A DNA stretch of 64,000 bases from Candidatus Poribacteria bacterium (lineage in GTDB: Bacteria; Poribacteria; WGA-4E; WGA-3G). The stretch spans positions 2,560,001-2,624,000 of the forward strand of contig OZ244048.1 in NCBI GenBank assembly GCA_965215265.1. Direction: 5' to 3'. The notes under the pieces were generated by a model. The model did no database searches and had not been told where the DNA came from. It was given only the letters and a program-made list of their open reading frames with translations. Positions 25,306 through 43,040 of the stretch are shown here, in pieces; the stretch's first letter is position 1, and each line of letters opens with the position of its first letter. The position numbers and the translations under genes were made by a program.

Positions 25306-25453
25306 AGGTTGGTTAAACAACGCGAGCCTCTTTTCGCCAGTGTGCTGAAGCATCCCCGGCAGAGCGTTTACCTGTCTTGAAAGAAGCATTTGGATTGGGG
25401 TTGAAAGAACTACGGTGGCTTGCATTGAAAGTGTGCTGGGAGGAGAAAATCAC

Positions 25454-26164
25454 TTAATCCAGTGTTTCACCAACGTCTAACTCGACAATTTCTACATTTT
25501 GCGAAGCTGTTAGTTTGCGAAGTTCTTCAGGTGTGCCGGTTAAGAGCGGGAACGTCCCGTAATGAATGGGTAGGATTGCTGACACATTGAGCAATTGGGC
25601 GGCATAGGCGGCTTCGCGCGGTCCCATCGTAAAGTGATCGCCAATAGGTAAGAGTGCGAGGTCTGGCTGGTAGATGTCGCCGATAATTCGCATATCGCCA
25701 AAGACATTCGTATCCCCGGCGTGGTAGAGTTTATAGCCGTTGGCGAATTCCAGTACGTACCCTGCCGGTTCACCCAAATAGACCGTTGTCCCGTCTTCCT
25801 CTGTGAAACTACTGCTATGATTTGCGGAAACCATCGTTGCTTTGATGCCGGCGACGGTTACGGTTCCGCCTTTATTCATGCCGATGGTATTTTCAACGCC
25901 CTTTCTCCCGAGCCATCCGGCAATTTCGACGATGGAAACGACGGTTGGCGTATGTTGCTTGGCGAGCGTGACTGCGTCCCCGATGTGATCTGCGTGTCCG
26001 TGCGTTATCAGCATGAGGTCTATTTTGTGAAAAGTTTTGAGTGCATCTGGGCAAACGGGATTGTTCGTTACCCACGGATCGATGAGGAGGGTTTGTCCAT
26101 CCGCCAAAATTTTGAAGGTAGAATGCCCGAGCCATGTGAGTTGGATACCGTTGTTAAGTTTCAT
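25454..26164 (-). CDS. UPF0173 metal-dependent hydrolase (metallo-beta-lactamase fold)
   Basis: 'TWLGHS', 'THGHADH', 'YHAGDT', 'LPIGDHFTMG', 'PIHY'. Confidence 0.93.
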   Translation of the reverse strand: MKLNNGIQLTWLGHSTFKILADGQTLLIDPWVTNNPVCPDALKTFHKIDLMLITHGHADHIGDAVTLAKQHTPTVVSIVEIAGWLGRKGVENTIGMNKGGTVTVAGIKATMVSANHSSSFTEEDGTTVYLGEPAGYVLEFANGYKLYHAGDTNVFGDMRIIGDIYQPDLALLPIGDHFTMGPREAAYAAQLLNVSAILPIHYGTFPLLTGTPEELRKLTASQNVEIVELDVGETLD

Positions 26165-27326
26165 TCAAAATTTCCTTTAATCTGTCAATGATAATTTCCA
26201 CTTCTCCTGGTAGGAGGGTTTGTCCGTTAATCAGGATTCCGTTTTTTCCAGTGGTTGCAATGTCAATGGCGGGGTCGCCCTGTGCGAGTGCGCGGAGAAT
26301 CTGATTTCGGGTTTGTCGGACTCGTTTTTCGTCAAATCGGATTTCAGTGCGTGGCATAGGTTGTGCGGCTTCGGATGGGAAGCTGCGCTGTACTTGAACG
26401 CCTGGGATATCTGCAAATGCGTCTGCGAAGGTAGTAACCTGCGCTTCGTAGTTTTGCATCAACTGCTGATGGTCTTGATTGAGGTACCATTTGACTGCGG
26501 CAAGCAAGCCGACCATCTCTTCCTTTCCGACCTTCATGCCTCTTCCGATAAACGGATGCGGAGGTCCGTTAAAGGCGATGGCTTCAATAAGCGGTTTCGT
26601 TCCGACAATCAGGCCGCTGCTTTGCGGTCCACATAAGCCTTTTCCGCCACTAAACATGACTAAATCGGCCCCGAGCTGTGTGAATCGCCAGAGGTTTTCA
26701 GGCGGTGGCAGCTGCGCGGCGGCATCAACGATAAGGGGTATGCCGTGCCGTTTAGCAATAGCGATGGCTTTTTCGTAAGGTACCCAGAGATGCTCCCTGC
26801 TGGGATTGGCGAAATAGAAGATAGCGGCGGTTTTGTCGGTAATCGCATTTTCCAATTCGTTAGGTGCTGTTCCGTTTTCGTCTCCTATCTCGATAAAGGT
26901 TACACCTACCTGTCGGATGGCGAAATCGTATCCAACCCTGCCGTGTCTGTGTACAATAACTTCACTTTTCATGGTATTGTCGAGACGTGGCAGTTTTTCA
27001 CGTTTAGCGGCATCAAGTCCTGTTATACAAGCTGCAGTGCTGAGTGTGAGTGCGGCGGCGGCCCCGCAAGAAACGTATGCGGCTTCATTGTGTGTGAGCT
27101 TCGCGATCTCTTCTCCGATGCGTTTTTGGAGTGCGATGATGTCTACAAAGTGTTTTGATGCCTCCTCCATTGCCTTGACAACTTCTGGGGGCATGATGGA
27201 GCCGCCGAGACGTGTGAGTGTAGCGTTGCCGTTGATAACGGTGCGGATGCCCAATTCTTTGTAAATGCTCACGTTTCCTGCTCCGGCCTGCTGATGCGCT
27301 GTGGGTTTATCCGACTTCTTCGCCAT
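26154..27326 (-). CDS. SelA-like / DgaE-family PLP-dependent enzyme
   Basis: 'RTVINGNATLTRLGGS', 'IVDAAAQ', 'FSGGKGLCGPQSSG', 'IGRGMKVGKEE'. Confidence 0.88.
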   Translation of the reverse strand: MAKKSDKPTAHQQAGAGNVSIYKELGIRTVINGNATLTRLGGSIMPPEVVKAMEEASKHFVDIIALQKRIGEEIAKLTHNEAAYVSCGAAAALTLSTAACITGLDAAKREKLPRLDNTMKSEVIVHRHGRVGYDFAIRQVGVTFIEIGDENGTAPNELENAITDKTAAIFYFANPSREHLWVPYEKAIAIAKRHGIPLIVDAAAQLPPPENLWRFTQLGADLVMFSGGKGLCGPQSSGLIVGTKPLIEAIAFNGPPHPFIGRGMKVGKEEMVGLLAAVKWYLNQDHQQLMQNYEAQVTTFADAFADIPGVQVQRSFPSEAAQPMPRTEIRFDEKRVRQTRNQILRALAQGDPAIDIATTGKNGILINGQTLLPGEVEIIIDRLKEILNET

Positions 27327-28119
27327 CTAATTTTCCGACGTGCAGGTCTATTTCGTCGCGCGATTCAATTTTCTCGACTTTACCGTCTGCCATGTGGAAG
27401 ATTCGATCAGAGACGTCCAACATTTTGTGGTCGTGCGTTGCGGTGATGATGGTGACTCCGTTTTCGCCATTTAGTCGGCGAAGGAGTGCGATAATCTCGA
27501 GTCCGGTTTTTGTATCAAGGTTCCCGGTGGGTTCATCAGCGAGGACGATGGCTGGATTGTTGGCCAGCGATCGTGCAATGGCAACACGTTGCTGCTGTCC
27601 GCCGGACAGTTCTAACGGTTTGTGTTGGACCCGGTCGCCTAACCCGACGAGTGCGAGGAGTTCGACGCCTTGTTCGCGGCTCTCATCGGCACTCATGCCT
27701 GCGAAAATCATGGGTAGCGAAACGTTTTCGAGCGCGGTCATGACGGGGATAAGGTTGAACGATTGGAAGATATATCCAATTTTCCGGCAGCGTAGCCAGG
27801 CGAGTTCATAAGCGTCAAGTTGGGCGATGTCAACTTCGTCAATATAGACTCTGCCTTCGGTCGGTTTGTCGAGTCCGCCAATCATATTGAAAAGCGTAGA
27901 CTTGCCGGAGCCGGAGGGTCCCATAATAGAGATATATTCGCCGCGCTGAATTTGGAAATTAACCCCCCTGAGTGCATCAACGGTGGTATCGCCCATTTCA
28001 TAACGTTTAATGAGGTTCCGGACGCGGACTGTATTCTCTTTGGGGAGGATTCGCTGGAACCGTTCGGGGGTTTCGGCAAGGATAGGTTGTCCATCACTTA
28101 GTCCTGTTTGCATATTCAT
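27307..28119 (-). CDS. ABC ATP-binding protein (LolD/MacB-like)
   Basis: GPSGSGKS, LSGGQQQRVAIAR, 'LADEPTGNLD', 'ATHD'. Confidence 0.95.
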   Translation of the reverse strand: MNMQTGLSDGQPILAETPERFQRILPKENTVRVRNLIKRYEMGDTTVDALRGVNFQIQRGEYISIMGPSGSGKSTLFNMIGGLDKPTEGRVYIDEVDIAQLDAYELAWLRCRKIGYIFQSFNLIPVMTALENVSLPMIFAGMSADESREQGVELLALVGLGDRVQHKPLELSGGQQQRVAIARSLANNPAIVLADEPTGNLDTKTGLEIIALLRRLNGENGVTIITATHDHKMLDVSDRIFHMADGKVEKIESRDEIDLHVGKLDGEEVG

Positions 28120-28353
28120 TTGTTTTCCTTTATCTCCTTTGTCTTACTTTGTCTTACTTTTGGGTCTGGCTTGCGAGCCGACCTCTTGTGTATGGCGTAC
28201 GGTTTGGGTAGGGAAAGGCCTCAGCCAAAAAGAGTTGCCTTTCTCTTATGCCTAAGTTTAGTGTCCTGCAAATCGATGTCGGATTTCTGTATATCTCCGT
28301 AAAGAATTGTCCCTGCTTGCAGGGTGAATTCTTGTCCATAAAGGGTTATGTTT

Positions 28354-28449
28354 TTTTTGTATATTTCAGCCCCATCAAGGGTTATGTATTGTTGAATCCG
28401 AGGTTTTAACATTGCAGCAGCCTTGTTACGGGCTCCTGTAGACGAAAAA
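28354..28449. mobile_element. Internally deleted inverted pair of the dispersed ~80-bp repeat (MITE-like)
   Basis: 28354-28400 resembles the arm at 47345. 28401-28449 '...GGGCTCCTGTAGACGAAA' matches 32623-32640 exactly. Confidence 0.55.
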
Positions 28450-28451
28450 CC

Positions 28452-28895
28452 TTAACGCTTTTTTAGTGTCGGTGCTTTCAATTCTGGTGCGTTCGGTTTC
28501 TTCTGTTCTGGGACGGCGAAGGCGATATAATTCCGTTTGCCGAGTTGTTGCATGAACATAATGAGTGAGGTTTCGGCTTCTTTTCGTGTTAACTGATGTT
28601 CTTTTTGTATACCTTTGATAATTTGTGCGATGGTATGTTTTCCGTCACACCGGTACCATACATAGGAGCCCATCGCATCGAGGACAATGACGCGTTTATT
28701 GGGGAGCATGAAGAATTTGCTAGCGAGTCGTACCCACAATTTATCTTTCTGTGGGACGACAAGCGACGTTTCCCCTTTGTCATCGACTTCCCATGTGATG
28801 AGTTCGTTTCGGACAGGAAACACTTGCATCAAGCGGTTCCTGTCCATGTCTGGGCGTTTCTTCAATTTGAGTGCGTATAGAATTCTATTGAGCAT
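28452..28895 (-). CDS. PqqD-family protein (RiPP recognition element fold)
   Basis: 'IVLDAMGSYVWYRCDGKHTIAQII...HQLTRKEAETSLIMFMQQLGKRNYI' PqqD winged-helix pattern. Start moved to ATG 28895 because the TTG at 28919 lies inside a repeat. Confidence 0.85.
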   Translation of the reverse strand: MLNRILYALKLKKRPDMDRNRLMQVFPVRNELITWEVDDKGETSLVVPQKDKLWVRLASKFFMLPNKRVIVLDAMGSYVWYRCDGKHTIAQIIKGIQKEHQLTRKEAETSLIMFMQQLGKRNYIAFAVPEQKKPNAPELKAPTLKKR

Positions 28896-28896
28896 T

Positions 28897-28977
28897 TTTT
28901 GTATACTGTAGCCCAACAACGCCTGATGTTTTGTTAATCACTGTGTACATCTCGTCAGAGCCGTTTATGTTTAGATT
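28897..28977. repeat. Copy of the dispersed ~80-bp repeat arm
   Basis: TTTTGTATACTGTAGCCCAACAACGC...TGTGTACATCTCGTCAGAGCCGTTTATGT aligns with 42959-43040 and 47345-47430. Confidence 0.7.
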
Positions 28978-28988
28978 CATATTAAGAG

Positions 28989-30125
28989 TTAATGGCATTG
29001 AATACTGAGTGCGACTTGTTGTGCGACGTGCATAACATCCGTTTTTCCGATGGCTTGGATAACATAGATTCGGTTTGCTAGATGACAGTGCCATAGATGA
29101 AACGCAAGGGTTGTCCGTTTAGAGAGTTTATCTAGGGCGAGTACCGGTGTAAGCGGTACCCCATCGTAGAAGCGTGTCTCTTGTCCTATGAGGGTTAAGC
29201 GTTCATCGTCAGTTCCGGTGTGTGGGATAACCTCAAATCCGTAGCCACGAATCGCTTTTGCGTATTTTGTGCGAAACCATGCTTCCAACGGTCTAGGTTC
29301 TGCTGTGTAATCGCTGAGGACGAGTTCGGCGGGTCCGTAGCGTTCAATGCTGAGTCGCTGCCGTTCGGGCATGAGGCGTGCTGCTGACTGCGCATTCGCT
29401 TTTCCGGCGGAACGTACAAAACTGGGTGCCCGTTTGGCGACGAAAGAGAACAACAGGTATCCACTTAGCAGTTTTTGCCGTTCTAATTTGTATTCCTTTG
29501 GGACTGTCATCTGGAGTCCATAAGCGCTCCAGAGTGTGTTTTGCGTGTCAATGCGTTCGGCGATTGATTGGAAGATGCGAAGTACAGTCGGCCGCCAATT
29601 CTCTTTCAGGCGTCCCATGACTTGTACAATGATTATCCGTTTCTTTTGTCTGCGGAGTTTGAGCATTAGTTTTCGGCCTCTGCTCAAATTCTCTCCGTTT
29701 CGCTGCGAGTGTGTGTAGAAAATAAGTCCATTGGCCCGGATGCTGCCTTTCCAGCTAAAGCCGAGGACGGTGCAGTCTTCAAGGAATTCGGGTTCTTTAA
29801 TGAGTGTCACATTTCGTCGGAAGGCGAGGTCAGTGCCTTTTTTGTAAGTCTTGCGAATGAGTTTGAAATATTCGTCGAGCGTTGCATGAAGGTCAGGTTT
29901 CTTGCGTCGCGTTTGTGCCCATTTAATTTCGAGGCGTGGCATCTGATCATCGTCAAGACGGAGGTATCCGTTTCTTTCGTCCCCACTGAGTCCGCTGAGT
30001 TCCCAGTTTTTAGGGATTTCAAGTTGTATGCCCGCCCATCCAAAAAGGGTCCAATCCATTTTTTGTTGTTGCATAGATAGGAATCGGTTATGAAAAATGG
30101 GGTGCATTTTCCATAACCGGTACAT
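28989..30125 (-). CDS. Hypothetical soluble protein with two repeated beta-rich halves
   Basis: 'FGWAGIQLEIPKNWEL' versus 'WSAYGLQMTVPKEYKL' suggests an internal repeat. In operon context. Start uncertain (30125/30107/30074). Confidence 0.75.
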   Translation of the reverse strand: MYRLWKMHPIFHNRFLSMQQQKMDWTLFGWAGIQLEIPKNWELSGLSGDERNGYLRLDDDQMPRLEIKWAQTRRKKPDLHATLDEYFKLIRKTYKKGTDLAFRRNVTLIKEPEFLEDCTVLGFSWKGSIRANGLIFYTHSQRNGENLSRGRKLMLKLRRQKKRIIIVQVMGRLKENWRPTVLRIFQSIAERIDTQNTLWSAYGLQMTVPKEYKLERQKLLSGYLLFSFVAKRAPSFVRSAGKANAQSAARLMPERQRLSIERYGPAELVLSDYTAEPRPLEAWFRTKYAKAIRGYGFEVIPHTGTDDERLTLIGQETRFYDGVPLTPVLALDKLSKRTTLAFHLWHCHLANRIYVIQAIGKTDVMHVAQQVALSIQCH

Positions 30126-30128
30126 CCT

Positions 30129-32117
30129 CTAAAACGGTTTGACAATAACGGCTTTGGAAACGAGTGCAATTGCGACGGTTCCCATGCCTATCAAGCCGAC
30201 GCCACATGCGAATCCTGCAGCGAGTACTGGATTGAACATATACCAGCGTCGCATTCCAAACCGCTTAATCATATAAAATCGTCCGATGACAGCGCCGAGC
30301 AGGCGTGTGACCATGCTGCCTGGGTCTGCGCCAATTCCGCCGATGATGCCGTAATACCACATAGAGGGTAGTTTGAACACCCATAGCATGCCGTAGATGG
30401 CGAGACTTGAGGTGAAGCCGGCGGAGACATAATCGCCTCGTATAGCTTGCAGCATCTGGCTATTTCCATCTCGTAGCGAGGTTTTCCAAAGACACTCATT
30501 CGTTGCATTGATCGGCCACATCATCTGTGCGAAGGGGTATTGCGCGCTCGGAATGGGCGCGATTTGCCAGATAAAATGCAGAACGACAATTCCACTGACA
30601 ATCAGAATCGGCATAATTAGCAGTGTGCCGGCGAGATTTGAGGTAAACGTCGTGCCTGTTAATTCCAGTACACGCCAGCTCTGTGTACCCCGCCCGTAAT
30701 CTTCATCAGGCAGCGGTGCGAACCAGATATCAATCTCTTCATACCGGCTTAAAATAAAGGTAATTTCATGCAGATACGGAATTTCAAACAGGTCTCGTCC
30801 GAGTACGCCGAACGTCCGTGCCGTGATATAGGAGTTAATGGGCGTATATAAGAAGGCATAACCGAGTAAGAAGCTGAGTGGGAAGTTAGGGACCATCCAA
30901 TGGATGAGCCAGACAAACCCGCCCATGCCGACAAGCCACATAGCACCCATGAGCCAGATAGGGAAATCCCCTCGGTTCGGTGGTGTTGCAAACGAGCCGC
31001 GTTCGCCTGCACGTTTCTGTGATCTTCGCAGTTTAAAAAGCATCGGAATCGAGGCGGCCATTCCGACGGCTGCGAGACTAAATGATTTGCCTATGCCATA
31101 ACTAATCCAGAAATCGAGTCCATTGAATAGTCCTACGCCTCGGACATCCAAGCCCGGTGTCCATTGATATAAAATTTCGTATCTGTACAGAATGTGTGGG
31201 TTCAAGATAAATTGTGATGCCATCGCGGTTAAGAATTCTGTCATGATAATAGGGAACGGCATGACGAATCCGATGAGCATCTGCCCAAAGTCTGTGCGGA
31301 ACGCGAATACACCGGTGGGTGCGAAGCCCTCAATGCTCTGGGTGAAATCGATCCAGGGTATCTTCAGGATCTCAATCGGTTGGCTCATCATCACCCCGGT
31401 GAGTGATGGCACGCCAATGTAGAGGAATCCCCAGATCAGGCCGGCCATGGAGCCGATAGAGAAGACTTGCCAACGCCAGGTCTCCTCTTTTCCGGTGGTT
31501 TCCGCGAGTGCGGTGGCACCTTGTGCACTAATGGGTGCCATGGGGTATGGTAGCCGCTCGAGATCTGCGGTAAGTCGGAATAAGATGTACTGCCCACTGA
31601 CAAAACGTAGGGTGCCGAGGAGTTTGCCTGCGAGATAAATGCCGATAGGTAAAAACCAGTCTGGGTGTAGGAGGTTGCGCGTCAGTACGCCGACAGAGTC
31701 CCCTGCAGGTACAATCCATGCTGGAATTTTATCTGCGATTTCATAAGATGCCGCTTGCGGTGTGTTGACGAAGTAGGCGTACCAGATAAAATTTCGGTAT
31801 TGCATTCCACTTCCGACTGCGGCGCCGGTTAGGCCGAGGAGCATATAGAGCTCCTGTCGCCGTGCGGTTGTAAAGGAGCGGCGTGCGAGTTCGGTGAATA
31901 GGATGACAGCGACCCATGGTGCGGCTTCGGCTCCGGATTGCCCGGAGACATAACTGAGATAGATGGAGCCGGGCATCATCAGCAATCCGACGAAGAGCGC
32001 ACCGAGGAACACTTTGACCGTTAATCCGGACTCAAAGGTGCGGATGCCGCCTTCAATGTCGTAGCGCTGTGCCCAGGCTTGCCACTCATCTGCTTGTGAT
32101 ACTCTTTCTCTTGCCAA
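30129..32117 (-). CDS. OPT-like polytopic membrane transporter
   Basis: About 16 hydrophobic segments. 'FESGLTVKVFLGALFVG', 'DLERLPYPMAP' resemble the OPT-superfamily pattern. TTG start with AGGAG RBS. Confidence 0.75.
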   Translation of the reverse strand: MARERVSQADEWQAWAQRYDIEGGIRTFESGLTVKVFLGALFVGLLMMPGSIYLSYVSGQSGAEAAPWVAVILFTELARRSFTTARRQELYMLLGLTGAAVGSGMQYRNFIWYAYFVNTPQAASYEIADKIPAWIVPAGDSVGVLTRNLLHPDWFLPIGIYLAGKLLGTLRFVSGQYILFRLTADLERLPYPMAPISAQGATALAETTGKEETWRWQVFSIGSMAGLIWGFLYIGVPSLTGVMMSQPIEILKIPWIDFTQSIEGFAPTGVFAFRTDFGQMLIGFVMPFPIIMTEFLTAMASQFILNPHILYRYEILYQWTPGLDVRGVGLFNGLDFWISYGIGKSFSLAAVGMAASIPMLFKLRRSQKRAGERGSFATPPNRGDFPIWLMGAMWLVGMGGFVWLIHWMVPNFPLSFLLGYAFLYTPINSYITARTFGVLGRDLFEIPYLHEITFILSRYEEIDIWFAPLPDEDYGRGTQSWRVLELTGTTFTSNLAGTLLIMPILIVSGIVVLHFIWQIAPIPSAQYPFAQMMWPINATNECLWKTSLRDGNSQMLQAIRGDYVSAGFTSSLAIYGMLWVFKLPSMWYYGIIGGIGADPGSMVTRLLGAVIGRFYMIKRFGMRRWYMFNPVLAAGFACGVGLIGMGTVAIALVSKAVIVKPF

Positions 32118-32216
32118 ATTGAATCTTCTCCTTTTGTATTGATTCTCAGAGACGTTTGTGGTATCAAACTCTCAACTTCAGACATGTCGCTCGACTCCGA
32201 CTTTCGCGGAGTCAAG

Positions 32217-32408
32217 TTATTCATCGTCTGAGTCCTCTGAGTTTTCTCCAGTATCCCGTAATTCTTCCCAAAAATGGGCGCAGAAGATGCCGATGGTTAG
32301 CACCAGTGCAGATAACATCTGCCACTGCCAACGGCCCCCAAGCACGAGAATGCTGAAGAGCCACAGCCCGGTCCCAAGAATGATAATAGCACTTGCAAGT
32401 TTTTCCAT
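32217..32408 (-). CDS. Small 2-TM membrane protein with acidic tail
   Basis: GGAGA RBS before ATG. Two hydrophobic helices and the tail 'EELRDTGENSEDSDDE'. Confidence 0.6.
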   Translation of the reverse strand: MEKLASAIIILGTGLWLFSILVLGGRWQWQMLSALVLTIGIFCAHFWEELRDTGENSEDSDDE

Positions 32409-32468
32409 TTTTTGTATATCTCCGTACTGTAATTCGTATATCTCCGTAGTGTAAAAGGTTATGTTCTG

Positions 32469-32673
32469 TTTTTCGTATATCTCCGTACCGTCGATGTCTA
32501 TGCTTTTGCTGGTTCGTGTGTAAATCTCGTCGGAGATTGCTTAGGTAATGTCTTTAAAATTCAAAACACCAAAAGGCTCAGACGAGATTTGTAAAGGATT
32601 TAACAGAGCATCCGCCTTTATTGGGCTCCTGTAGACGAAAGAGCGAGATTTGTAAAGGATTTAATATAGCAGC
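32469..32673. mobile_element. Full inverted pair of the repeat arms (~170-bp MITE-like element) plus a partial extra arm
   Basis: Left arm 32469-32550 (...TGTAAATCTCGTCGGAG). Right arm 32571-32640 (GGCTCAGACGAGATTTGTAAAGG...GTAGACGAAA). Partial repeat CGAGATTTGTAAAGGATTTAA at 32644-32664. Confidence 0.65.
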
Positions 32674-32731
32674 AACTGGCATCGGTTATTCTTTTAGGGC
32701 GGTTAAACCCGCCCTTCCGGTCTATTCAGGA

Positions 32732-35700
32732 TTACCCTGCGGAGGACAACGTCGGATGCAAACCTGTTGTTCCTGATGTCTCTGCAGTGTTCCCGTTTTC
32801 TTCCCGGCCTCGTTCATGGAATTCGGCACGTACATCTACACTGAAAGTTCGCCAAATTAGGAGTTGTTTCCGTAAGAGGTTAAGGAATCGCCGGTTAACC
32901 CGTTTCCAAGAGGCGATCTCGCCACTCTCTCTATGGACATCCAACGTGATTTTATACAGGTCTTCCTCTTCACCGCCGACAGGTGATGTAACGAACTGAA
33001 TAGACTGACTCACCCCTAAGTCATACGGTGCTAACCAGACCATCATGCCGATTTGATATGCATCTTGCTCGGTATCGGTTTGGAAGGCGACCTGATCGGT
33101 GTAGAAATCGCTGGCGGATTCGTCAGCGTGTGCTTCAAAGTAGTCGCGCATAAAAACGTTCAAGCCGAGTGCTTCCTCTGCTAGTACGGTGAATGGCAGG
33201 TTGAAGTGCCACACGTCGCCCTCTGGTTCGGGGAGTTTCCATTTCCGCTCAATATCCGGCACTGCCATCCGTGACGCTTTAATAGCAGGGTACATGGTGC
33301 TGAGTAGGACAACCGCCATAACGATAATCGTTGCGACGACGGTGGACATGGAGGAGTAGTTGAGCGTCAGGCCGGCGAGCCAGCCGAAATTGACGAGGGT
33401 TGTCGCAATAGCTTGCCCCATAAGGTACCCGAGTACGGCACCGACGATTGCGTAGACACACGCCTCTGCCAGGAAGAGGAACGCGATATGAACGGGTGCG
33501 AGTCCGACAGAGCTGTAAATTCCGATTTCGCGTACGCGTTCGTAAACAGCCCCGAGCATGGTGTTGAGTACAATGAGCGCGGCGATGAGAATAGGTACGA
33601 AGAGATTGCCCATCCCGCTGAAGCTAGTCATGCCGATACTGCTATAGAGGTAAGTATCTTTATCGCGTCCGACAAAGAAGTCGAGCGCGATGCGGTTCAT
33701 CAGGGGTGCCATGATGAGATCTAACTTATCGATCGCTCCTAACAACTGCGGGTCATCTTGGCGGGGTTCCATGTTGACGGCGACGCTTCGCAGCGTGCCG
33801 CCTTGGTTCATGACGACTTCGTATGGTAGAACCGCCACGCTGTCCGGTGTAAGATGGAGGTATTTCTGGAGTTCACCTTCCAAGGTTTCGTCGCCGGTAC
33901 CGCCGCGGCTCCGTTGCTGTTGCATTAGCTGATAATCGACCGGTGTGAGTTCTTCGCCGTCGTTATCAGTGAGGTCTTTGAACCCGATGCCGAGTACGCC
34001 GACAACGGTAAAGTCTGCACCGTATACGGACACAGTGGCTTTGCCCATATCGCTTTCGGTAATCTTGAGCAATTCTGCCATTCCTTTGGGGAGCACAATT
34101 GCATAGGGCCATTCCGTGGGCCAGTCGGTGGAATCTTCAGGGGTAAACCATTTTCCGTATTCAAGGTACCGGTCTATACCTGTGACAGCGGGTTCTGCTT
34201 CATTCATGCCAACGAGCATATTGGCTGCAAAGGTTAACGCTTCGCCGGTGAGTGGGTTCGTCGGTGGCGAAGGATCTATGGTATTTGAGGTGCGCGTCAG
34301 TTGGACAAACGACTGGTCGCCGGTGCCAGAGGATTGGTACCAGGCGCGGGGTGCTACAATATTTCGCACGGTTAAGATGGGTTCATCTTCGATTTTCTCA
34401 ATGAAACCGTCCTGTTGCAAAGAGGTGAGTGCCGCGGCGACATCTATGGGTGGCCGGTCTTGCTTGACAAGTTGTTCATTTTTGCGTTCTAGGAGCCGCT
34501 CCAACGCGTCCACGGTGATTTGAGTCTTCTGCATGTCGTTCAGGACGGAAGTTAGCACAGGTTCCTCTAACGGGCGCCAGTACTGGTCTCGGATAAGGAG
34601 TCCGGTGTAACGCGGTGTGACTTGCGGCAAACTGGTGCGGTTCGGATGCATAAACGTCCGGACTGAGGTAAACGAAATCACGGTGAACGTCAGAATCACC
34701 AAGGTACTACAGGTGAGAATCGTCCGCCCTTTCCGTTTCCGCATGTTGGAAATGCCGAGGCTAAATGCTGCGGCACTCGCACTCAGTCTGCCGACATCTG
34801 CTTTGTAGAGTTTGTTGCCTTCCTGCCGAATTTTCTCTAATTGCTCCTCAAATTTTCGGACAATAATACTAATGACGATGACGGTGAGTGCCAATACAAC
34901 AAATGCGATTAAGATAATCACAGGTGTGGTCGTAATCTGGAACGCCGGATGCACCTGACTCAAGAAAAAGAAGACGAGCAGAAAGATGCCGAAGGTCCCT
35001 AAAATCTGTTTGTGAATATTGGGGAATCCGAAGATGAGGCGTTCCATAAAGTAAGCGAACGGCATTAATAGGGCGAGATAGAACATGACACCGTTGACAA
35101 CATCGTTTCCGGTCTGTTTGACATCTGGGTAGGCGCGTGATTCGTAGCCCCAGGCAGCACGCGCGAGCTTGAGCGCCTGCTGATAGTCATTCTGCAGCAG
35201 TTCAGCTTCGGCACGTGCTAAGTATTCATTGGCGAATTGGTGGAGCTTATCGAGCCGGTCGCTGGAGATACCGAACCGTTTGTAAAGGCGCGACCGGTTT
35301 TCATCGAGCCACCACATATCTCGGACGACGACGTAAGGGGTGAGCCGAATCTGCCCATTCTCCCGGACGACGAAGCCTTCACCGGTGTAGAGTGTCGGGT
35401 TCTTCATTCCGCTTTTTGTCGCTTTGATGAGCAAGAGGCGTTTGCCAATCTGGCCGTAAGCCATACCGACTTTGATGCGGGTTTCTGGCTCACTGTAAAC
35501 GAGCGCGATGGGCTCTGCCGCAGAGACACCTTCTTGCTGCCACGGTTTCGACATTCCAAACTTTTCGGGTGGGCTATCAGTGAGCGCATCGTATACTTCC
35601 AACTCGCGCAAAGTACGCAGATACCGCTGATCCACGAGGTCATAGATGGTAGTAGAAACACAAGGGAATGTGACGACTCGACAGCCTCTGCGCCGGGTGT

Positions 35701-38700
35701 TAATAGGTATCTTATTAGGTAGCAGCTTTGCGCCGTAATTGCCGAGGTCTGGTGCGTAGACAATGTCGCCGGAATCGGCATCAAGGATGTATGCCTCGAC
35801 TTCTTGTACGCCGCCGAGTCGTCGTGTAGCTCTGCCTTCCATGGCTAATCCGGCGACTTCAAAATTGCCTTTGTTATCGCCCATGACAAACAGGTCTCCT
35901 CGGACCCCCATCATGGTTTTGTGCTTCCGCCGGAGGGTCAAAATGGGGTATGGCACTGGTTTATTGGGCAGTGCGGATTCGCGTGCGTCAAATTCAACGA
36001 CATCGCCGAAGAGGTTACAATAGAAATTGCCGACACGTGCGGCGGTAGGCATTTCTGGATCTCGGAGTGCCTGCAGGAGCAATGAGGCTAGCGTCTGTGC
36101 CTGCTGATGGAGGTTTCCGTCTTGTCGCAGATCGACGCGGTCGATGGTATCGAGGGGTGTGTCTGTTAAGACGCGTGCATCCTCAATGGTGGCAAAAGCG
36201 ATGCCGGTTTTGCCGACGAGCGTGGCGACTTCGCTGTCAAAGGCGATTTTCCCTGGGATGTAGGTTTTCCACGTTTTGCCGCCACTGGCAGAGATTGCGT
36301 TGATGAAGTTGGATTCGCCGCCAAGCCCGGCAATACCGATGAGTATCTTAATATCCTCTATTTCTTCCTCGCTGAACGTCTCGGGATCTTCGTGTCGTAG
36401 TCGTAACATGGCATTGAGTCGTTCCCGGGTGCGGATATTGTTTTTTCGGTTCTTTTTTGCTGTTCGGACATCGTTTCGGATAAACCGTTCGACCTCTTTT
36501 CGGACATAATCCATATCCTTGAGCAGATCTTCGGAAGGTTCGCCGCGGTTACGCCACTGCTCAAACTGCATTTTCATGAGTCGGCTGACTCCGCTGAGTC
36601 CGGTGAGTTTTGCGTAGTGTGAGCTGAGTAAGGTTTCCAAGGTTTTCCCTTCGAGTGCGGTTTTGTCGGAGATGCCGCCGGCGACGTTCCATTGTTGTGC
36701 CATCACAGCCTGCCGGATCTGGTCATCTGTCCACTGCCAGAGTTTTCGGACACGTACGCCAAAATCTGCGTCCTCGGCATAAGATGCGAGTTTATTCCCG
36801 ATACTGGCAAACTCGCGTCGCAGTACAAATTCCGGCTGCTGGTCGTAGAACCAGCCCTTATTGAACACCCCGAACTGGTTTGATTGCGATGACAAGTCAA
36901 TACTGACATAAAGAGATGTGTAGTAACGGTTAAAGAGGTCTTGTAGAGAGATTGCAGCCTCAATCTGTGTGAGTTTTCGGTAATATTCGTCCGGGTCAAT
37001 GCGTCCCATCTTTTCTATACGACTTTGGATATTGCGGAACCGGGCATTCCGGAGGGTTAGCATGTTATCTCGGAGGAGGACTTTCGTCTCCTCATCTAAA
37101 TCCCCGGTCAGCGTAGGTAGCCGCTCATAGAGGTTGTGGAGTGCAACGATATCAGATTCTGCGCGCTGGGTGACACGTTCAAATAGAGAGGTTTCGGTGA
37201 TATGCGCGGCGATAACCGAACGGACATCAAGCGCCTGCTCGACATCATCCGGTGAGAGATAGTTATTCAGAATGAGTTGCTCTTCGGCTAAGTACTCCCG
37301 TCCTAACGTTTCATGTGTTGCGAGGAGGTTCTGGATACGTATGCGTTCTAATCGTGCATTCCGTAGGGCGATTTCAAAGAGGCTCTGCTTATCCTTCAAG
37401 AGATCGGCGATTAAGATGGTATTGCTTTCCGCGGTGGTGTCTGTATCCTCGGATTCGGTTAATCGTTGTTTGAGTTGTGCGTCCACAGTGTTGAGGCGCT
37501 GCAAGCCGCCTACGGAGAGATACCGGGTGCTGTAGAGCAGAGAATCTGCGGCTGCCCCGAGCGGTGCCTCCTTCAATCTGCGGATACTCGATTTAATCTG
37601 ATCTTCAATCGGTTGGCTGTCTGTGATAGAGCTTGCTATCTTTTCAAGGAGTGCTTTTTCGCGTTGGATGGCGGCTTCAAAAGAGTCAGAGGCATTTCCG
37701 AGTACTTTGCGTGCGGCTTTAGCGCGATTCAACGTGGGCAAATCAAGGTGCCGGTCGAGGATTTTCTCGGGTGTCCACATTAAGGCGAATTTGCGCTTGT
37801 CACTGAGCTCCCAATCTGCGACGGTGTTATTCAGCATTTCAATGTCTGCGACAAGTTCCTGCGGCAAGTCCGGGGGCGGTGGGATGTACCAGTCGGATCC
37901 ACGTTGTTCTGGGATGAGGTAGGCGGTGTTGGGATGTGTCCCGTAACTGGAGCTCTGCTTCGCCTGGTCAATGTCACGGATGAGTTTCTCGACGGCCCAG
38001 GTGTCGAGCCGTGCGATGGGGAGTGCAAGTTTTTCGATCAGGTCACGTTGTGCGATGCGACTGGTGTCTAGCGCGACGGTCCGGATATCTGCTAACCGTT
38101 GTACAATGTCTCGTAGGAAATGGGTAGTTTGAAGTGCCTCTTTCTTTGCCCGGGCTAAGTTGGCGAGGAGTCGGCTTTTTTCTTCACCGGTAAACCCTTG
38201 TTTCTCACGTTTTCTATTCCGGTCAGTCTGCTTTTTCTGGCGTTCGGAGAAATCGCGCTGTTCTTCGTTGAGTAAATCGATCTGCGACCGGGTTTCGGCG
38301 AGTCCATCCAGCGTTATTACCAAGGAGTCTAAATCAGATTTAACAGTGTGGATGCCGTAAAAGAAATCTGCGGGCAAATCGACCAGTACGCTTCGATCGA
38401 TGGAGAGGAGGAGTCTTCTGCCGAGTTCCTCAAATTCAATAATATCGGTGGAAAGTCCGCGTCGGAGTCCGTGCATTGTGGGGGTTCCTGGGGAATCGGT
38501 TGCTCCGCCAACAATATCCTGCCCAATGCCTTCCATGAAGGCGCGCATTCCGGCGAGTCCTTGGAAGTGTGCGTCGATAGCGACGAACAGTACAGAGCGT
38601 CCTGGTCGGTATTCTGGCAAACTGAAGAGGCGTGCGAGCTCAAGTAGCACGGCGATTCCGCCGGTTGGATCTGCGCCGGGTGCCATGGCAGGGACGATGG

Positions 38701-40102
38701 ACATGGAATCGTAATATGCTGTGAGGACGACGAGTTCGTCGCGAAGTGCCGGGTCTCCGCCTTCCAAAAAGCCGCGGATGTTTTGCCCGATGCCGCGTGT
38801 CCATCTCATTTGTCCGCGGACGCGGACGTTCACGTTTTGCTCCTGCGCGAGCATCGCTTGGAGTGCCGCGCCATCTGCTTTGGATATCCAAAAACGTGGG
38901 ATGTTTGCAGGGACGGTGCCGAACTTGTTCTCTGCCTCGCCACGAATTGTGGTTTCCGGTTCAATGAAGATGATGGCTGTCCCGCCGAGCATCTGTGCGT
39001 TGATATAGCGGGTGCTGGAATTAAAATCGAGGAGGACGATAGCGCCTTTGGGTATGAAAATGTGAGATTCGCTGGCGGCGACAAATTCGCCGGATTCATC
39101 AATTTGTCCGTCGTTGTTATTATCAATACCATCAGTCGCGTCGCCGGGAATCTCATCGGTCCAGCCATCGGCATCGTTATCAATGCCGTCGGAGGCCCAT
39201 CCACGGATTTCAGAAAGGAGTGGAATCTCGCCGTATTCATCAACGGTGCCGTCTTCGTCGTTATCGATGCCGTCGGATGCTTTCTGGAGATGTCCGTTGA
39301 GTACATCATCGGTGATGCTAGCTTCTGTGATGCGTTGTCGGCGTGCGAGCCCTGGGAGGGTATCTCCGTCTTGGAGTGCGTACCAAAAACCCCCGATCGG
39401 TGTGCCGTTGAAATCCGCGAGCTCCGCATCATCGCCGTAAAGCAGTGGGCCAGACAAACCCCCGGTGGGAATATAGACGGTGCTTCCTTCTACAACGGGT
39501 GTCGCAAGAAACCTATTTTTTTCATGTGCGCGGATAATGTCCGTTTCTACTTGGTAACTTTGGGCGATCTGTTCAAGGGTTTCACCCGCCAAGACGGTAT
39601 GTTTGATGCCATCAGCAAGGAGAGGTGTGCGGACCAGGTTCGGCCAAAAAGGTGTCAGTTTAAAGGTGTGTAGCACAGCGTCCTCGGTGGAAAGCACCTC
39701 AATGACACTATCGCCGTAGTCAATAGGGACGGTGACAGTAAATTCACGGCTTTCAACATTTTGTAAGCCGATGTCCACAAGCCGGTCGAAGATGTATTTG
39801 CTGCCGCTGGCGGCTTGCGGGTAACCGGTCACGCGCGTCTGAAGACTTGAGAGGCGTGCGATGTCTTTTCGAAGATTGCCGATAGATAACTCGTCTCGGA
39901 TTTGGATTGCTGCGGCCTTCATGCCGGGGTCGGATGTCTGTGCAACGCTACTCGGATTTAAGATAAATCCGAGCGATAGACAGAACCACGCCGTAAGAAG
40001 GTGTACGGATATATGGATTCGGGACATAAAATTCTCCATTGGTTTTTCTTTTTTTCGGTTCAGTCTCATTTCTCTTCTGAAAATCGAAAAATTTGCTTTC
40101 AC
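32732..40102 (-). CDS. Giant FtsX-like ABC permease with M28-peptidase-like ectodomain, two LysM-like modules and DGIDND Ca-binding-type repeats
   Basis: N-terminal signal/TM. M28-like 'VVLTAYYDS...PGAD..GIAVLLELAR'. FtsX C-terminus 'LGISNMRKRKGRTILT', 'NTMLGAVYERVREIGIYSSVGLAP', 'YPAIKASR'. Alternative starts at 40070/40040/40028. Confidence 0.88.
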   Translation of the reverse strand: MKANFSIFRREMRLNRKKEKPMENFMSRIHISVHLLTAWFCLSLGFILNPSSVAQTSDPGMKAAAIQIRDELSIGNLRKDIARLSSLQTRVTGYPQAASGSKYIFDRLVDIGLQNVESREFTVTVPIDYGDSVIEVLSTEDAVLHTFKLTPFWPNLVRTPLLADGIKHTVLAGETLEQIAQSYQVETDIIRAHEKNRFLATPVVEGSTVYIPTGGLSGPLLYGDDAELADFNGTPIGGFWYALQDGDTLPGLARRQRITEASITDDVLNGHLQKASDGIDNDEDGTVDEYGEIPLLSEIRGWASDGIDNDADGWTDEIPGDATDGIDNNNDGQIDESGEFVAASESHIFIPKGAIVLLDFNSSTRYINAQMLGGTAIIFIEPETTIRGEAENKFGTVPANIPRFWISKADGAALQAMLAQEQNVNVRVRGQMRWTRGIGQNIRGFLEGGDPALRDELVVLTAYYDSMSIVPAMAPGADPTGGIAVLLELARLFSLPEYRPGRSVLFVAIDAHFQGLAGMRAFMEGIGQDIVGGATDSPGTPTMHGLRRGLSTDIIEFEELGRRLLLSIDRSVLVDLPADFFYGIHTVKSDLDSLVITLDGLAETRSQIDLLNEEQRDFSERQKKQTDRNRKREKQGFTGEEKSRLLANLARAKKEALQTTHFLRDIVQRLADIRTVALDTSRIAQRDLIEKLALPIARLDTWAVEKLIRDIDQAKQSSSYGTHPNTAYLIPEQRGSDWYIPPPPDLPQELVADIEMLNNTVADWELSDKRKFALMWTPEKILDRHLDLPTLNRAKAARKVLGNASDSFEAAIQREKALLEKIASSITDSQPIEDQIKSSIRRLKEAPLGAAADSLLYSTRYLSVGGLQRLNTVDAQLKQRLTESEDTDTTAESNTILIADLLKDKQSLFEIALRNARLERIRIQNLLATHETLGREYLAEEQLILNNYLSPDDVEQALDVRSVIAAHITETSLFERVTQRAESDIVALHNLYERLPTLTGDLDEETKVLLRDNMLTLRNARFRNIQSRIEKMGRIDPDEYYRKLTQIEAAISLQDLFNRYYTSLYVSIDLSSQSNQFGVFNKGWFYDQQPEFVLRREFASIGNKLASYAEDADFGVRVRKLWQWTDDQIRQAVMAQQWNVAGGISDKTALEGKTLETLLSSHYAKLTGLSGVSRLMKMQFEQWRNRGEPSEDLLKDMDYVRKEVERFIRNDVRTAKKNRKNNIRTRERLNAMLRLRHEDPETFSEEEIEDIKILIGIAGLGGESNFINAISASGGKTWKTYIPGKIAFDSEVATLVGKTGIAFATIEDARVLTDTPLDTIDRVDLRQDGNLHQQAQTLASLLLQALRDPEMPTAARVGNFYCNLFGDVVEFDARESALPNKPVPYPILTLRRKHKTMMGVRGDLFVMGDNKGNFEVAGLAMEGRATRRLGGVQEVEAYILDADSGDIVYAPDLGNYGAKLLPNKIPINTRRRGCRVVTFPCVSTTIYDLVDQRYLRTLRELEVYDALTDSPPEKFGMSKPWQQEGVSAAEPIALVYSEPETRIKVGMAYGQIGKRLLLIKATKSGMKNPTLYTGEGFVVRENGQIRLTPYVVVRDMWWLDENRSRLYKRFGISSDRLDKLHQFANEYLARAEAELLQNDYQQALKLARAAWGYESRAYPDVKQTGNDVVNGVMFYLALLMPFAYFMERLIFGFPNIHKQILGTFGIFLLVFFFLSQVHPAFQITTTPVIILIAFVVLALTVIVISIIVRKFEEQLEKIRQEGNKLYKADVGRLSASAAAFSLGISNMRKRKGRTILTCSTLVILTFTVISFTSVRTFMHPNRTSLPQVTPRYTGLLIRDQYWRPLEEPVLTSVLNDMQKTQITVDALERLLERKNEQLVKQDRPPIDVAAALTSLQQDGFIEKIEDEPILTVRNIVAPRAWYQSSGTGDQSFVQLTRTSNTIDPSPPTNPLTGEALTFAANMLVGMNEAEPAVTGIDRYLEYGKWFTPEDSTDWPTEWPYAIVLPKGMAELLKITESDMGKATVSVYGADFTVVGVLGIGFKDLTDNDGEELTPVDYQLMQQQRSRGGTGDETLEGELQKYLHLTPDSVAVLPYEVVMNQGGTLRSVAVNMEPRQDDPQLLGAIDKLDLIMAPLMNRIALDFFVGRDKDTYLYSSIGMTSFSGMGNLFVPILIAALIVLNTMLGAVYERVREIGIYSSVGLAPVHIAFLFLAEACVYAIVGAVLGYLMGQAIATTLVNFGWLAGLTLNYSSMSTVVATIIVMAVVLLSTMYPAIKASRMAVPDIERKWKLPEPEGDVWHFNLPFTVLAEEALGLNVFMRDYFEAHADESASDFYTDQVAFQTDTEQDAYQIGMMVWLAPYDLGVSQSIQFVTSPVGGEEEDLYKITLDVHRESGEIASWKRVNRRFLNLLRKQLLIWRTFSVDVRAEFHERGREENGNTAETSGTTGLHPTLSSAG

Positions 40103-40321
40103 GCAAAAGGCACTCTATGGTTTCCATCAACGAACGAAAACGTGAAGGTTTGCGGTATTGCCCGTCAATCTGGTTCTAATTTTCATTTCAATATGGATTA
40201 TTGCAAAACTTTTCATTAAGTGTATCATAATTTCATTTTTTTTGGCAACTTAAATTTGCATCTGACGTGGCCTTAAGGTTATAATATATTTTACTTTAAG
40301 GTTTTAAAGGAGTTAATATGT

Positions 40322-40654
40322 ATGAATAAAGACAAGGTTGCCTTGCGTATAAAACAACGCCGGCATGAATTGCGGATAACGCAGACAGAATTAGCACAGA
40401 TTTCAGGGTTGACTCCGGCTGCAATTTCCCAATTTGAAGCAGGTACCCGGCACCCTTCGTTCAAGACACTCTCCGCTTTATCTAATGCGTTGAAAGTCAC
40501 ATCCGATTTCCTGATCGGTCAGACAGAAAAGCGTTACGAAGATCTTTTAGCCGACCCACGGGTTAGCGCGATGCTTAAGGGTATGATGGATTTGAACGAG
40601 TCAGACAAGGAGATACTCTTTAAATTCTACGAATTTCTGAAATCAAGACAATGA
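40322..40654 (+). CDS. XRE-family HTH transcriptional regulator
   Basis: 'RIKQRRHELRITQTELAQISGLTPAAISQFEAGTRHPSFKTL..LSNALKVT.DFLIG'. AAGGAG RBS, TATAAT at 40280-40285. Confidence 0.95.
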   Translation: MNKDKVALRIKQRRHELRITQTELAQISGLTPAAISQFEAGTRHPSFKTLSALSNALKVTSDFLIGQTEKRYEDLLADPRVSAMLKGMMDLNESDKEILFKFYEFLKSRQ

Positions 40655-40764
40655 TTTCGGATTCTAAATAACACCACTGCCAAAATCAGAGACAATCGTG
40701 AGATTAAATGATTTCAGATTCTAAATAACACCACTTTCAAAATTAGAGACAATTGCGAGATTAA
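40651..40764. repeat. 2 x 57-bp tandem direct repeat
   Basis: ATGATTTC(G/A)GATTCTAAATAACACCACT..CAAAAT(C/T)AGAGACAAT...GAGATTAA at 40651 and 40708. Confidence 0.9.
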
Positions 40765-40957
40765 AAGAACCATCATGTGCTAAAGTTGTTTTTTTTTTCT
40801 GAATCAGGTTTATAGTATTAGAGCCGTTGCGGTGGTGTGATGCGTGCTATACGCGTACTACGCTGCTGGTTCGAAATGCGAGCGGTATATCGCGCACAGG
40901 GGGGGCGAGCTCCTGTGCGTGCCTTTGTCAGAGGCGCGTAGACAATTGGAACGTCGC

Positions 40958-42007
40958 CTAATTTGGAATAAGACATACTTTCCCGAAATTTTGGCGTTTC
41001 TCCAAGCGGGTCTGTGCCTCGCTGGCATCGGAGAGTGGCATCACGGTGTCAATAATAGGGATGAGTTTACCCTGTCCAGCGAGCCGGATGAGCGTTCGGA
41101 GTTCAGTTATCGTCCCTAAGGCGGAGCCCATCACCGTTATCTCTTTCTGATACATTTTCCGGATATCAATTTCGGCAATGTTGCCGGTTGTAACACCACA
41201 TGTGACGAGGCGTCCGTTTTTGGCCAGGCTGGCGATGCTCTGCTGCCAGGTTGCTGTACCGATATGCTCGAGAACAACATCGACACCACGTCCATTCGTT
41301 TCTTTAAGTATGACATCTGAGAAGTCTGTCTCAGTGTAGTTAATGGTAACGTCTGCGCCGTGTTTTCGGGCGATTTCGCATTTCCGAGCGGTGCTGGCTG
41401 TTGCGAAGATGCGTGCCCCTGTGAGTTTAGCGAGCTGTAATCCTGCGCTTCCGACACTGCCACCGGCACCGAGTATCAATATATCTTCCCCAGGGTGCAG
41501 CTGCGCCCGCGTCATTAGCATGTGCCACGCGGTTAAGTAAGCTATCGGCATCGCCGACGCATTGACAAAAGATAAAGCGTCGGATATCCGGATTGCGTTT
41601 CGCGCAGGAACCTTGACATATTCCGCGTACCCGCCGTTCACTTGGAAGCCCAGCAACGCTTGGGTTTCACACAAATTTTCGGCACCACGGTGGCAATCGT
41701 TGCAGCTGCGGCAAGGAACACATGGCGCTAGGACAACACGGTCGCCAACGGAAACCGCATCCGCTACTCCACTCCCTATTTCTGCTACGACACCTGCAAT
41801 ATCAGAACCGAGAATATGCGGCGTATCGCCTTTACGAAGTTTTTCCGCAATTTCCGGACGGTTGCGCCGGGCATGGATATCTAAATAGTTGACCGCGCAC
41901 GCCTCGACTTGGACAAGAATGTCGGTGGTATCTATGACAGGTTTGGAGACCTCTGTATATTGTAGTACCTCAGGACCACCTTGTTGTGAAAAAACGACAG
42001 CTTTCAT
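40958..42007 (-). CDS. Zinc-binding alcohol dehydrogenase / MDR oxidoreductase
   Basis: 'HILGSDIAG', structural Zn motif 'CRSCNDCHRGAENLC', 'GAGGSVG', 'FGKVCL'. Confidence 0.93.
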   Translation of the reverse strand: MKAVVFSQQGGPEVLQYTEVSKPVIDTTDILVQVEACAVNYLDIHARRNRPEIAEKLRKGDTPHILGSDIAGVVAEIGSGVADAVSVGDRVVLAPCVPCRSCNDCHRGAENLCETQALLGFQVNGGYAEYVKVPARNAIRISDALSFVNASAMPIAYLTAWHMLMTRAQLHPGEDILILGAGGSVGSAGLQLAKLTGARIFATASTARKCEIARKHGADVTINYTETDFSDVILKETNGRGVDVVLEHIGTATWQQSIASLAKNGRLVTCGVTTGNIAEIDIRKMYQKEITVMGSALGTITELRTLIRLAGQGKLIPIIDTVMPLSDASEAQTRLEKRQNFGKVCLIPN

Positions 42008-42091
42008 ATTTTTTGTTGATTAGGCGTTCACTCCTACAGCCACTGTCTAGGTACGTTTGCCGAATTTGTGGGTAAGAAGCGTTATAAAAAC

Positions 42092-42901: not shown

Positions 42902-42958
42902 GTTGCTACCTCGTCAATTTGTAATATCTCTTGCACGGTGCCTCCCTGAAAAACGTTA

Positions 42959-43040
42959 ATTCGTCTACTGGCGCCCAATAAAGGCGACTGCAATGCTAAA
43001 ACCTGTGAAAACCTCGTCAGAGCCGTTTTATGTGTAGATT
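42959..43040. repeat. Copy of the dispersed ~80-bp repeat arm
   Basis: Its reverse complement GGCTCTGACGAGGTTTT...CGCCTTTATTGGGCGCCAGTAGACGAA matches 32575-32639. Confidence 0.8.

Follow-up and report, generated by a model that had tools for sequence, protein, structure and literature searches.

Six co-oriented genes of a sponge-symbiont poribacterium, designated A–F below, may encode a conserved, uncharacterised peptide-handling envelope machine driven by a type VII ATP-binding cassette (ABC) motor, a reading that we put at a little under an even chance. The genes follow one another in the same orientation on the minus strand and span 27307–40102 of the window, by which we mean the whole 64,000-nucleotide stretch of DNA that was analysed (G000:C1:2560001-2624000, where G000 is the 4.83 Mb source genome and C1 its single contig); coordinates given without this prefix refer to the window. 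The nearest public relatives of the genome are all labelled Candidatus Poribacteria, which are marine sponge symbionts. The engine, a MacB/FtsX-type permease (A) with its ATPase (F), is of a known kind; what is new is the partnership in which it is found and the remodelled M28-like head that A carries. The components are as follows.

A: 32732–40102, minus strand; giant permease (2456-aa open reading frame; 2431 aa in the database gene call).
B: 32217–32408, minus strand; small membrane protein (63-aa open reading frame; hydropathy).
C: 30129–32117, minus strand; polytopic membrane protein of predicted OPT/YSL fold (662 aa; fold match).
D: 28989–30125, minus strand; soluble protein of predicted tandem PsbP/Mog1 fold (378 aa; fold match).
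E: 28452–28919, minus strand; soluble PqqD/RRE-domain protein (155 aa; Pfam).
F: 27307–28119, minus strand; ABC ATPase of the LolD/MacB/FtsE/DevA clade (270 aa; Pfam and NCBIfam).

The first-pass annotation of this DNA had listed the same six co-oriented genes, and their open reading frames (ORFs), sizes and domains were recovered as it gave them by ORF, Pfam and NCBIfam scans. For B, C and D the Pfam and NCBIfam scans returned no family at E ≤ 0.01. That annotation also knew of no functional characterisation of the combination, and our full-text literature searches likewise found no description of it; in public records A is annotated as 'hypothetical', 'M28 family peptidase' or 'LysM protein', and C as 'hypothetical' or 'peptide transporter'. 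Scans of 25000–42500 for promoters (16 sites, compared with 17.4 in shuffled sequence) and terminators (23 sites, compared with 20.1) gave no excess, and Rfam returned zero matches in 24000–43000.

The gene order of the cluster is highly conserved in Poribacteria. Around C, 78 poribacterial loci were fetched, 64 of them with enough flank for a six-gene count, and 63 of these 64 (the exception is L066) contain A-B-C-D-E-F in one order and orientation. Of 41 order-level genomes, 40 were found to contain C, among them all 38 of high quality. Leaving G000 aside, 39 of the 40 others carry it, and there its identity to the window protein is 73–97%, a higher level than is usual among membrane proteins. 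By profile search, D is present exactly once in 80 of 81 genomes from throughout the phylum (77 of the 78 high-quality ones), and B was seen by tblastn in 77 of the 78 loci at 43–84% identity. To judge by this synteny, A–F form one conserved functional unit in Poribacteria. Two more co-oriented genes, G (a DgaE-like pyridoxal phosphate-dependent ammonia-lyase at 26154–27326 that overlaps the 3′ end of F by 20 nucleotides) and H (a metallo-β-lactamase-fold hydrolase at 25454–26164, next after G), come after F in 53 of 65 poribacterial loci; they are missing from the deeper poribacterial branches and from all distant loci, and we therefore rejected them as core members and regard them as lineage-specific riders. 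The genes upstream (Zn-ADH and PhyH) and the downstream methylase were also set aside as unrelated to the cluster. Two genomes of one poribacterial genus carry C in duplicate, back to back in G032 (G032:C1:1519149-1523244) and ∼1.4 kb apart in G038 (G038:C1:2756720-2762098); these copies are 75% and 78–79% identical to the window protein.

Relatives were found well outside this phylum. Metagenome contigs were scanned with a 22-sequence alignment of C and the best 80 of 454 confirmed stretches were kept; in 60 of these 80, which make up the distant set, C is less than 50% identical to the window protein. Taxa in the distant set are named from source names (Armatimonadota, Capsulimonadaceae and Acidobacteriota) and from Atlas rows (Lentisphaerota, Planctomycetota and Armatimonadota). 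C of other phyla is ∼40% identical to window C, with more than 100 invariant alignment columns. A is located directly upstream of C in 44 of the 47 distant loci that have at least 1.5 kb of upstream sequence; of the three exceptions, L135 is an ORF-calling artefact and the other two, L116 and L159, truly lack A. The A–C spacing in distant loci is less than 100 nucleotides. D, E and F come after C in 17–18 of the 29 distant loci with at least 4.5 kb downstream. The other 11 lack them there, and two of these have the genes upstream instead, as D-E-X-F in L151 and as X-F only in L130 (X is an additional permease described below). In L138, in which the downstream flank is too short for the count, D-E-X-F is upstream in the same locus, and L089 contains A-C only, with a D-E-X-F operon on another contig of its genome (G041). 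E is always next after D. B was not detected in the distant loci and is confined to Poribacteria. These arrangements indicate a system of two modules, A-C and D-E-(X)-F, that are fused in some loci and split between loci in others. The first-pass annotation had proposed a neighbourhood search across phyla; since synteny recurs in the distant loci as well as in Poribacteria, the objection that the genes are not neighbours in other genomes falls away. Its picture of a single six-gene unit holds for Poribacteria and gives way elsewhere to the two separable modules.

X is a gene of 200–290 aa between E and F in distant loci. Its product is a minimal FtsX-type permease with four transmembrane (TM) segments and a TM1–TM2 loop of only about 10–25 residues. 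The poribacterial clusters contain no X gene. G000 encodes a 226-aa X homologue, X′ (47% identical to X of other phyla), directly followed by F′, a 242-aa ATPase that is 60% identical to F; the pair (G000:C1:2524145-2525589, plus strand) is 63 kb from the cluster and ∼35 kb before the window start, isolated among sugar-metabolism genes. A maximum-likelihood tree puts window F among the ATPases of clusters in other phyla; F′ falls inside this clade too, as a paralog on a long branch (support 87/93). X′–F′ may be a displaced seventh component of the system. The first-pass inventory of six components, each of them confirmed, is extended by one, the permease X, that belongs to the cluster in other phyla and is encoded elsewhere in G000. 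ORF clustering of 81 loci, which covers linked genes and leaves room for partners encoded elsewhere, gave no further recurrent partner; the top extra family occurs in 8 of the 81 loci, in one sub-lineage.

Protein A is a permease with 7–8 TM segments as judged by hydropathy. The database gene call of 2431 aa places the start at 40027, at an ATG 25 codons into the ORF, and this is the probable start, giving a signal-peptide-like N-terminus. The N-terminal hydrophobic segment is followed by ∼1620 predicted periplasmic residues comprising a LysM domain, acidic repeats of the type DGIDNDxDG, a PA domain and an M28-like domain in remodelled form. Three extra TM segments (residues ∼1668–1753) and a short cytoplasmic linker then lead into a MacB-type module (TM1 at residues 1793–1814, a predicted periplasmic domain of ∼340 aa and TM2–4 at residues 2159–2277), and the protein ends in a conserved cytoplasmic domain of ∼180 aa. 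The Pfam scores for FtsX (PF02687; 47.4 bits, cut-off 25.5), Peptidase_M28 (PF04389; 31.9 bits, cut-off 21.3) and LysM (22.5 bits) are above their cut-offs and that for PA (20.3 bits) is below. MacB_PCD scores 18.4 bits in the window protein against a cut-off of 27 and 28.3 bits in the relative at L089. A profile of the A family (24 sequences) was searched against PDB sequences. Its first ∼350 positions match the PA-containing M28 aminopeptidases of Aneurinibacillus (2ek8; E = 1e-25) and B. subtilis (YwaD, 6hc6; E = 1.5e-22), and also the transferrin receptor and nicalin (E = 1e-7 to 3e-7), which are non-catalytic relatives of these enzymes. The C-terminal part matches MacB (5lil), YtrF, LolF and LolC; the alignment to the periplasmic part of MacB (5lil) is weak (15.3 bits).

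The zinc ligands of M28 enzymes, which we take to be His, Asp, Glu, Asp and His together with a catalytic Glu, are extensively replaced in the A family. The column of the first zinc His is Tyr or Phe in all 24 members (21 and 3, respectively), the catalytic Glu has become His in 24/24, the Glu ligand is Phe in 20 (F/G/Y/A in 24/24) and the second His is Asp or Glu in 23 (D/E/G in 24/24); the columns of the two Asp ligands remain acidic in 24/24. The corresponding residues of window A are Tyr464, Asp465, Asp478, His512, Phe513, Asp1069 and Asp1314. As aligned, the canonical di-zinc peptidase centre is gone from the family and its site is under strong constraint. The near-invariance of the site is better explained by ligand binding or unconventional chemistry than by decay. 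The first-pass annotation had assigned 'processing' to the M28 domain, which becomes doubtful with both zinc His residues, the catalytic Glu and the Glu ligand replaced family-wide.

The M28-like domain of the poribacterial proteins is split by insertions of ∼556 and 245 residues (between residues 513 and 1069 and between 1069 and 1314, respectively). Both insertions have a high content of charged residues and contain little Gly or Pro, and the long one appears helix-prone. The long insertion is restricted to Poribacteria and near relatives, and short forms of A (∼1500–1800 aa) exist without it. LysM and the acidic repeats near the N-terminus are also lineage additions; outside Poribacteria LysM occurs in one further Atlas cluster of A proteins, in 19% of its members. 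The 'glycopeptide' suggested by the first-pass annotation as a possible substrate hinges on this LysM insertion.

The ATPase F scores 122.7 bits for ABC_tran, with its Walker A, LSGGQ, Walker B plus Glu and H-loop motifs all intact. LolD, DevA, YbbA, MacB and FtsE are its top NCBIfam matches, all under the equivalog cut-offs. F is ∼67–74% identical (85% at one locus) to the ATPases of distant clusters in which C is only ∼40% identical. The FtsX score of A, the profile matches and the clade of F bear out the first-pass assignment of the engine to the MacB/FtsX (type VII) class. Like MacB, LolCDE and FtsEX, the system combines an FtsX four-TM module that has a predicted periplasmic domain between TM1 and TM2 with an ATPase of the LolD/MacB/FtsE clade, and the two different permeases A and X in other phyla recall LolC and LolE. 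It differs from these systems in the three added TM segments, the periplasmic head of more than 800 aa (∼1600 here) and the C-terminal cytoplasmic domain of A, and in X, which is almost devoid of a periplasmic loop. To our knowledge, OPT-fold, PsbP-fold or PqqD proteins are not obligate partners in any of them. Identity with the known systems was considered and rejected: A scores 31.9 bits against the LolC cut-off of 473 and F 237.7 against the LolD cut-off of 307.75; the single FtsX_ECD match of the genome (PF18075) is elsewhere (G000:C1:1278990-1279274), so the cluster is no FtsEX replacement, and A scores 21.1 bits for FtsX_actino (cut-off 250); a MacAB–TolC-type pump was dismissed, as far as linked genes go, since no HlyD-type membrane-fusion or outer-membrane factor recurs in the 81 loci.

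An AlphaFold model of C (predicted local distance difference test score, pLDDT, 79.8; predicted template modelling score, pTM, 0.81) was compared with the PDB using Foldseek. Barley YS1 is the sole convincing match (7wst_A, E = 1.3e-10; 7wsr_A, E = 2.7e-10), with template modelling (TM) scores of 0.61–0.67 over ∼680 columns and 14% identity; the next match has a TM score of 0.09. C is therefore predicted to have the OPT/YSL fold, and it resembles YS1 in whole-protein fold, size and number of TM segments; it differs from the OPT/YSL transporters in being genetically locked to an ABC permease. The first-pass description of C as OPT-like is upheld by this fold match and not by sequence: the OPT family model PF03169 gave no match to window C at E ≤ 1 and matched 2 of 22 relatives (best E = 1.6e-5), and a PDB sequence search with the C family profile gave zero matches. 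Membership of C in the DUF6785 family was rejected, as C is outside the 29 genome matches at E ≤ 1 and has a best blastp E of 0.02 to them. DUF6785 itself shows a striking expansion in G000, which carries 22 full-length OPT-like paralogs (∼635–685 aa) plus fragments; they stand alone with no recurrent neighbours. Examples (loci L173–L180), all outside the window, are at G000:C1:1576958-1578433, 720423-721910 and 618285-619766; a fragment with an in-frame TGA is at G000:C1:3493386-3494938, with pieces at 1405133-1405611. B has an acidic tail and two hydrophobic segments, of which only one is strong.

D has no TM segment and no signal peptide by hydropathy. Its predicted model (pLDDT 84.9) matches PsbP chains in Foldseek (E = 5.7e-5 to 1e-3, probability 1.0) and also TplEi (a two-domain immunity protein of a T6SS), Mog1, LpqN and Tsi3, at identities of 9–14%. 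Each half of D matches PsbP (TMt 0.5–0.6) and TplEi aligns over the full length; on these models D consists of two tandem PsbP/Mog1-type α–β sandwich domains. The family has no Pfam model (PsbP_2 touches 1 of 26 members, E = 0.082) and comprises 1995, 1322 and 360 cluster representatives (50% identity) at E ≤ 1e-3, 1e-10 and 1e-30, respectively, among 1.84 billion. D differs from PsbP, Mog1 and TplEi in lacking a signal peptide or TM segment and in its Cys-rich family pattern, a conserved CxxC...C...C(H). In the window lineage an insertion of ∼30 residues takes the place of the CxxC pair and the two C-terminal Cys residues are kept, and the presumed zinc site may have been lost there. E, described as a stand-alone PqqD protein in the first-pass annotation, does contain a PqqD domain (PF05402; 41 bits, cut-off 23.4). 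It is soluble with a basic N-terminal extension, and it is under every NCBIfam PqqD-type equivalog cut-off, the nearest being ScmD, PqqD and the lasso-peptide PqqD chaperone. It is set apart from known PqqD/RRE systems by its gene context: neither a precursor peptide nor a maturation enzyme, radical-SAM or otherwise, is encoded in the window cluster, and none recurs in the 81 loci. As both D and E are soluble and lack signal peptides, they are presumably cytoplasmic.

How these parts might work together can be outlined as follows. An asymmetric type VII motor would be formed by two copies of F together with A, which may act alone or be paired with X (or X′). Motors of this class use ATP hydrolysed in the cytoplasm to power movement in the periplasm, and here the hydrolysis would shift the periplasmic head of A by mechanotransmission. 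The head would grip a peptide or peptide-bearing ligand by its free end and leave it uncut, C would serve as the membrane conduit for that ligand, and D and E would bind the ligand, or the tail of a partner, on the cytoplasmic side. A peptide-like substrate is favoured because all of the recognisable modules (the head of A, C, E and D) are by analogy peptide or protein binders. We lean slightly towards outward delivery of a cytoplasmic peptide, with C as exporter and A, X and F acting in the periplasm, over uptake or recycling, since this direction would suit both the class of the motor and the RRE and chaperone-like parts on the cytoplasmic side. In its most far-reaching form the proposal would describe an ATP-driven export or sorting route for peptides or proteins that is comparable in rank to Lol or to a secretion system. 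The giant A, the minimal X and F would be an asymmetric motor mechanically coupled to the OPT-fold conduit, the RRE- and PsbP-type cytoplasmic adaptors would choose the terminus of a ribosomal peptide or protein, and the remodelled aminopeptidase head would take that terminus in the periplasm. Judged from the loci found, such a route would be core to Poribacteria and would also extend to Armatimonadota, Planctomycetota, Lentisphaerota and others. In this strong form we consider it quite unlikely.

Several observations weigh against the peptide-handling machine. Physical contact between A and C is deduced from gene adjacency, and C occurs without A nearby in several loci (L116, L159 and L097). 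A search for fused or longer forms of C gave no A–C fusion, which is weak evidence. By sequence C is no member of the OPT family, and the mapping of the M28 ligands depends on a HMMER alignment to 2ek8 and on the assumed identities of the zinc-binding residues. No substrate gene, maturation enzyme, membrane-fusion protein or TolC-like/outer-membrane factor recurs near the cluster in the 81 loci. Finally, the known OPT/YSL proteins are proton-coupled importers of oligopeptides or metal chelates, whereas the type VII ABCs known so far act in the outward direction or have regulatory roles, so that the two analogies pull in opposite directions.

The main competing explanation, for which the importer-type fold of C speaks, is that the system serves uptake or recycling: the head, anchored to peptidoglycan by LysM in Poribacteria, would catch the free end of peptides or of muropeptide stems, which the ABC motor would feed to C for import, and D and E would receive or sense the peptide. 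The resemblance of the head to the receptor-type M28 relatives (transferrin receptor and nicalin), the LysM domain of window A and of part of the other A cluster, the single-copy, core-gene status and the absence of a cargo or biosynthetic gene from the cluster are all in keeping with this explanation. However, the genome already has its 22 stand-alone DUF6785 transporters, which need no ABC partner, LysM is lineage-restricted, D and E could be given only ad hoc roles and we know of no type VII ABC that drives import; we regard uptake as rather unlikely. LysM would also suit a regulator built on the logic of FtsEX–EnvC, in which the ATPase moves a dead peptidase-like head (with the long helical insertion in Poribacteria) that switches on or positions cell-wall or surface enzymes, C being an accessory or recycling transporter. 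EnvC carries a degenerate LytM domain, and A offers the corresponding elements: its ABC is of type VII, its metallopeptidase domain is degenerate and its long insertion is charged and helix-prone. Such a regulator is nevertheless improbable, given that the short forms of ∼1500 aa do without the insertion, that a canonical FtsX with FtsX_ECD is encoded elsewhere in the genome, that no hydrolase gene is linked and that the universal A–C pairing, D and E would be left unexplained.

Two further explanations carry much less weight. Of all catalogued entries, a PADLOC defence model, PDLC01991 ('CARF_m8--CARF_LolE_TM'), comes closest in sequence to A's membrane module, extra TM segments included; it matches residues 1939–2428 (E = 2.7e-50 for the window protein and 2.5e-60 for a short form) and raises the question of an antiviral effector. 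The match is limited to positions 72–690 of the 810 in the profile, leaving ∼120 C-terminal and 70 N-terminal positions unmatched, and the C-terminal 177 aa of A alone gave no match. In PADLOC C, D and E have no match and F has only generic ATPase matches. A single-copy, phylum-core set with stable synteny is unlike a mobile, patchy defence island, and its context is that of a housekeeping core operon rather than of a CRISPR or defence locus; a defence role seems barely credible. That the genes are mere neighbours without a common function might be argued from the separability of A-C and D-E-X-F and from the loci with C alone. This is very improbable and is largely refuted by the synteny counts: the near-complete poribacterial collinearity, the recurrence of the arrangement at ∼40% identity of C and the co-occurrence of both modules in the one split genome that was checked.

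Type VII ABCs (Lol, MacAB, FtsEX and Bce) have a central place in the building of the envelope and in antibiotic tolerance, and we know of none that works with an OPT-fold, PqqD/RRE or PsbP-fold protein; our literature searches for such partners found none. The head of A shares the PA and M28 fold and sequence signature of the PA-domain aminopeptidases and differs from them in being tethered to a membrane ABC module, split by insertions and altered in its ligands. Present as one copy, the cluster belongs to the core genome of an entire uncultivated phylum, and it recurs in several others; C and D have no family model. Knowing what A–F do would close a gap in the envelope biology of a number of diderm phyla that have received little study, assign a function to the large family of remodelled M28 pseudo-aminopeptidases and test whether an ABC mechanotransducer can drive or gate a secondary-transporter fold. 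Distant look-alikes of A in the Atlas (FtsX proteins of 935–1076 aa) are from Bathyarchaeota and Thermoproteota, as are distant look-alikes of C; with scores of 0.82–0.88 this is a lead only, which hints that an A-like/C-like pairing might reach the archaea.

Other genes of the window include a separate, ordinary MacB-type permease (15018–16262, plus strand) with a full MacB_PCD domain (134 bits) and FtsX; G000 has at least 15 genes with an FtsX domain, this one included. A 957-aa Eco57I/N6_Mtase-type (type IIG-like) restriction–modification protein is encoded at 22432–25305 (plus strand), convergent with the downstream end of the cluster. The product of 43176–46742 (1188 aa) contains many LRR repeats, Big_1, a dockerin and FlgD_ig, and that of 9685–12459 (924 aa) contains a cohesin domain and a Por_Secre_tail-like C-terminus; their domain content suggests a cohesin–dockerin pair of surface proteins.

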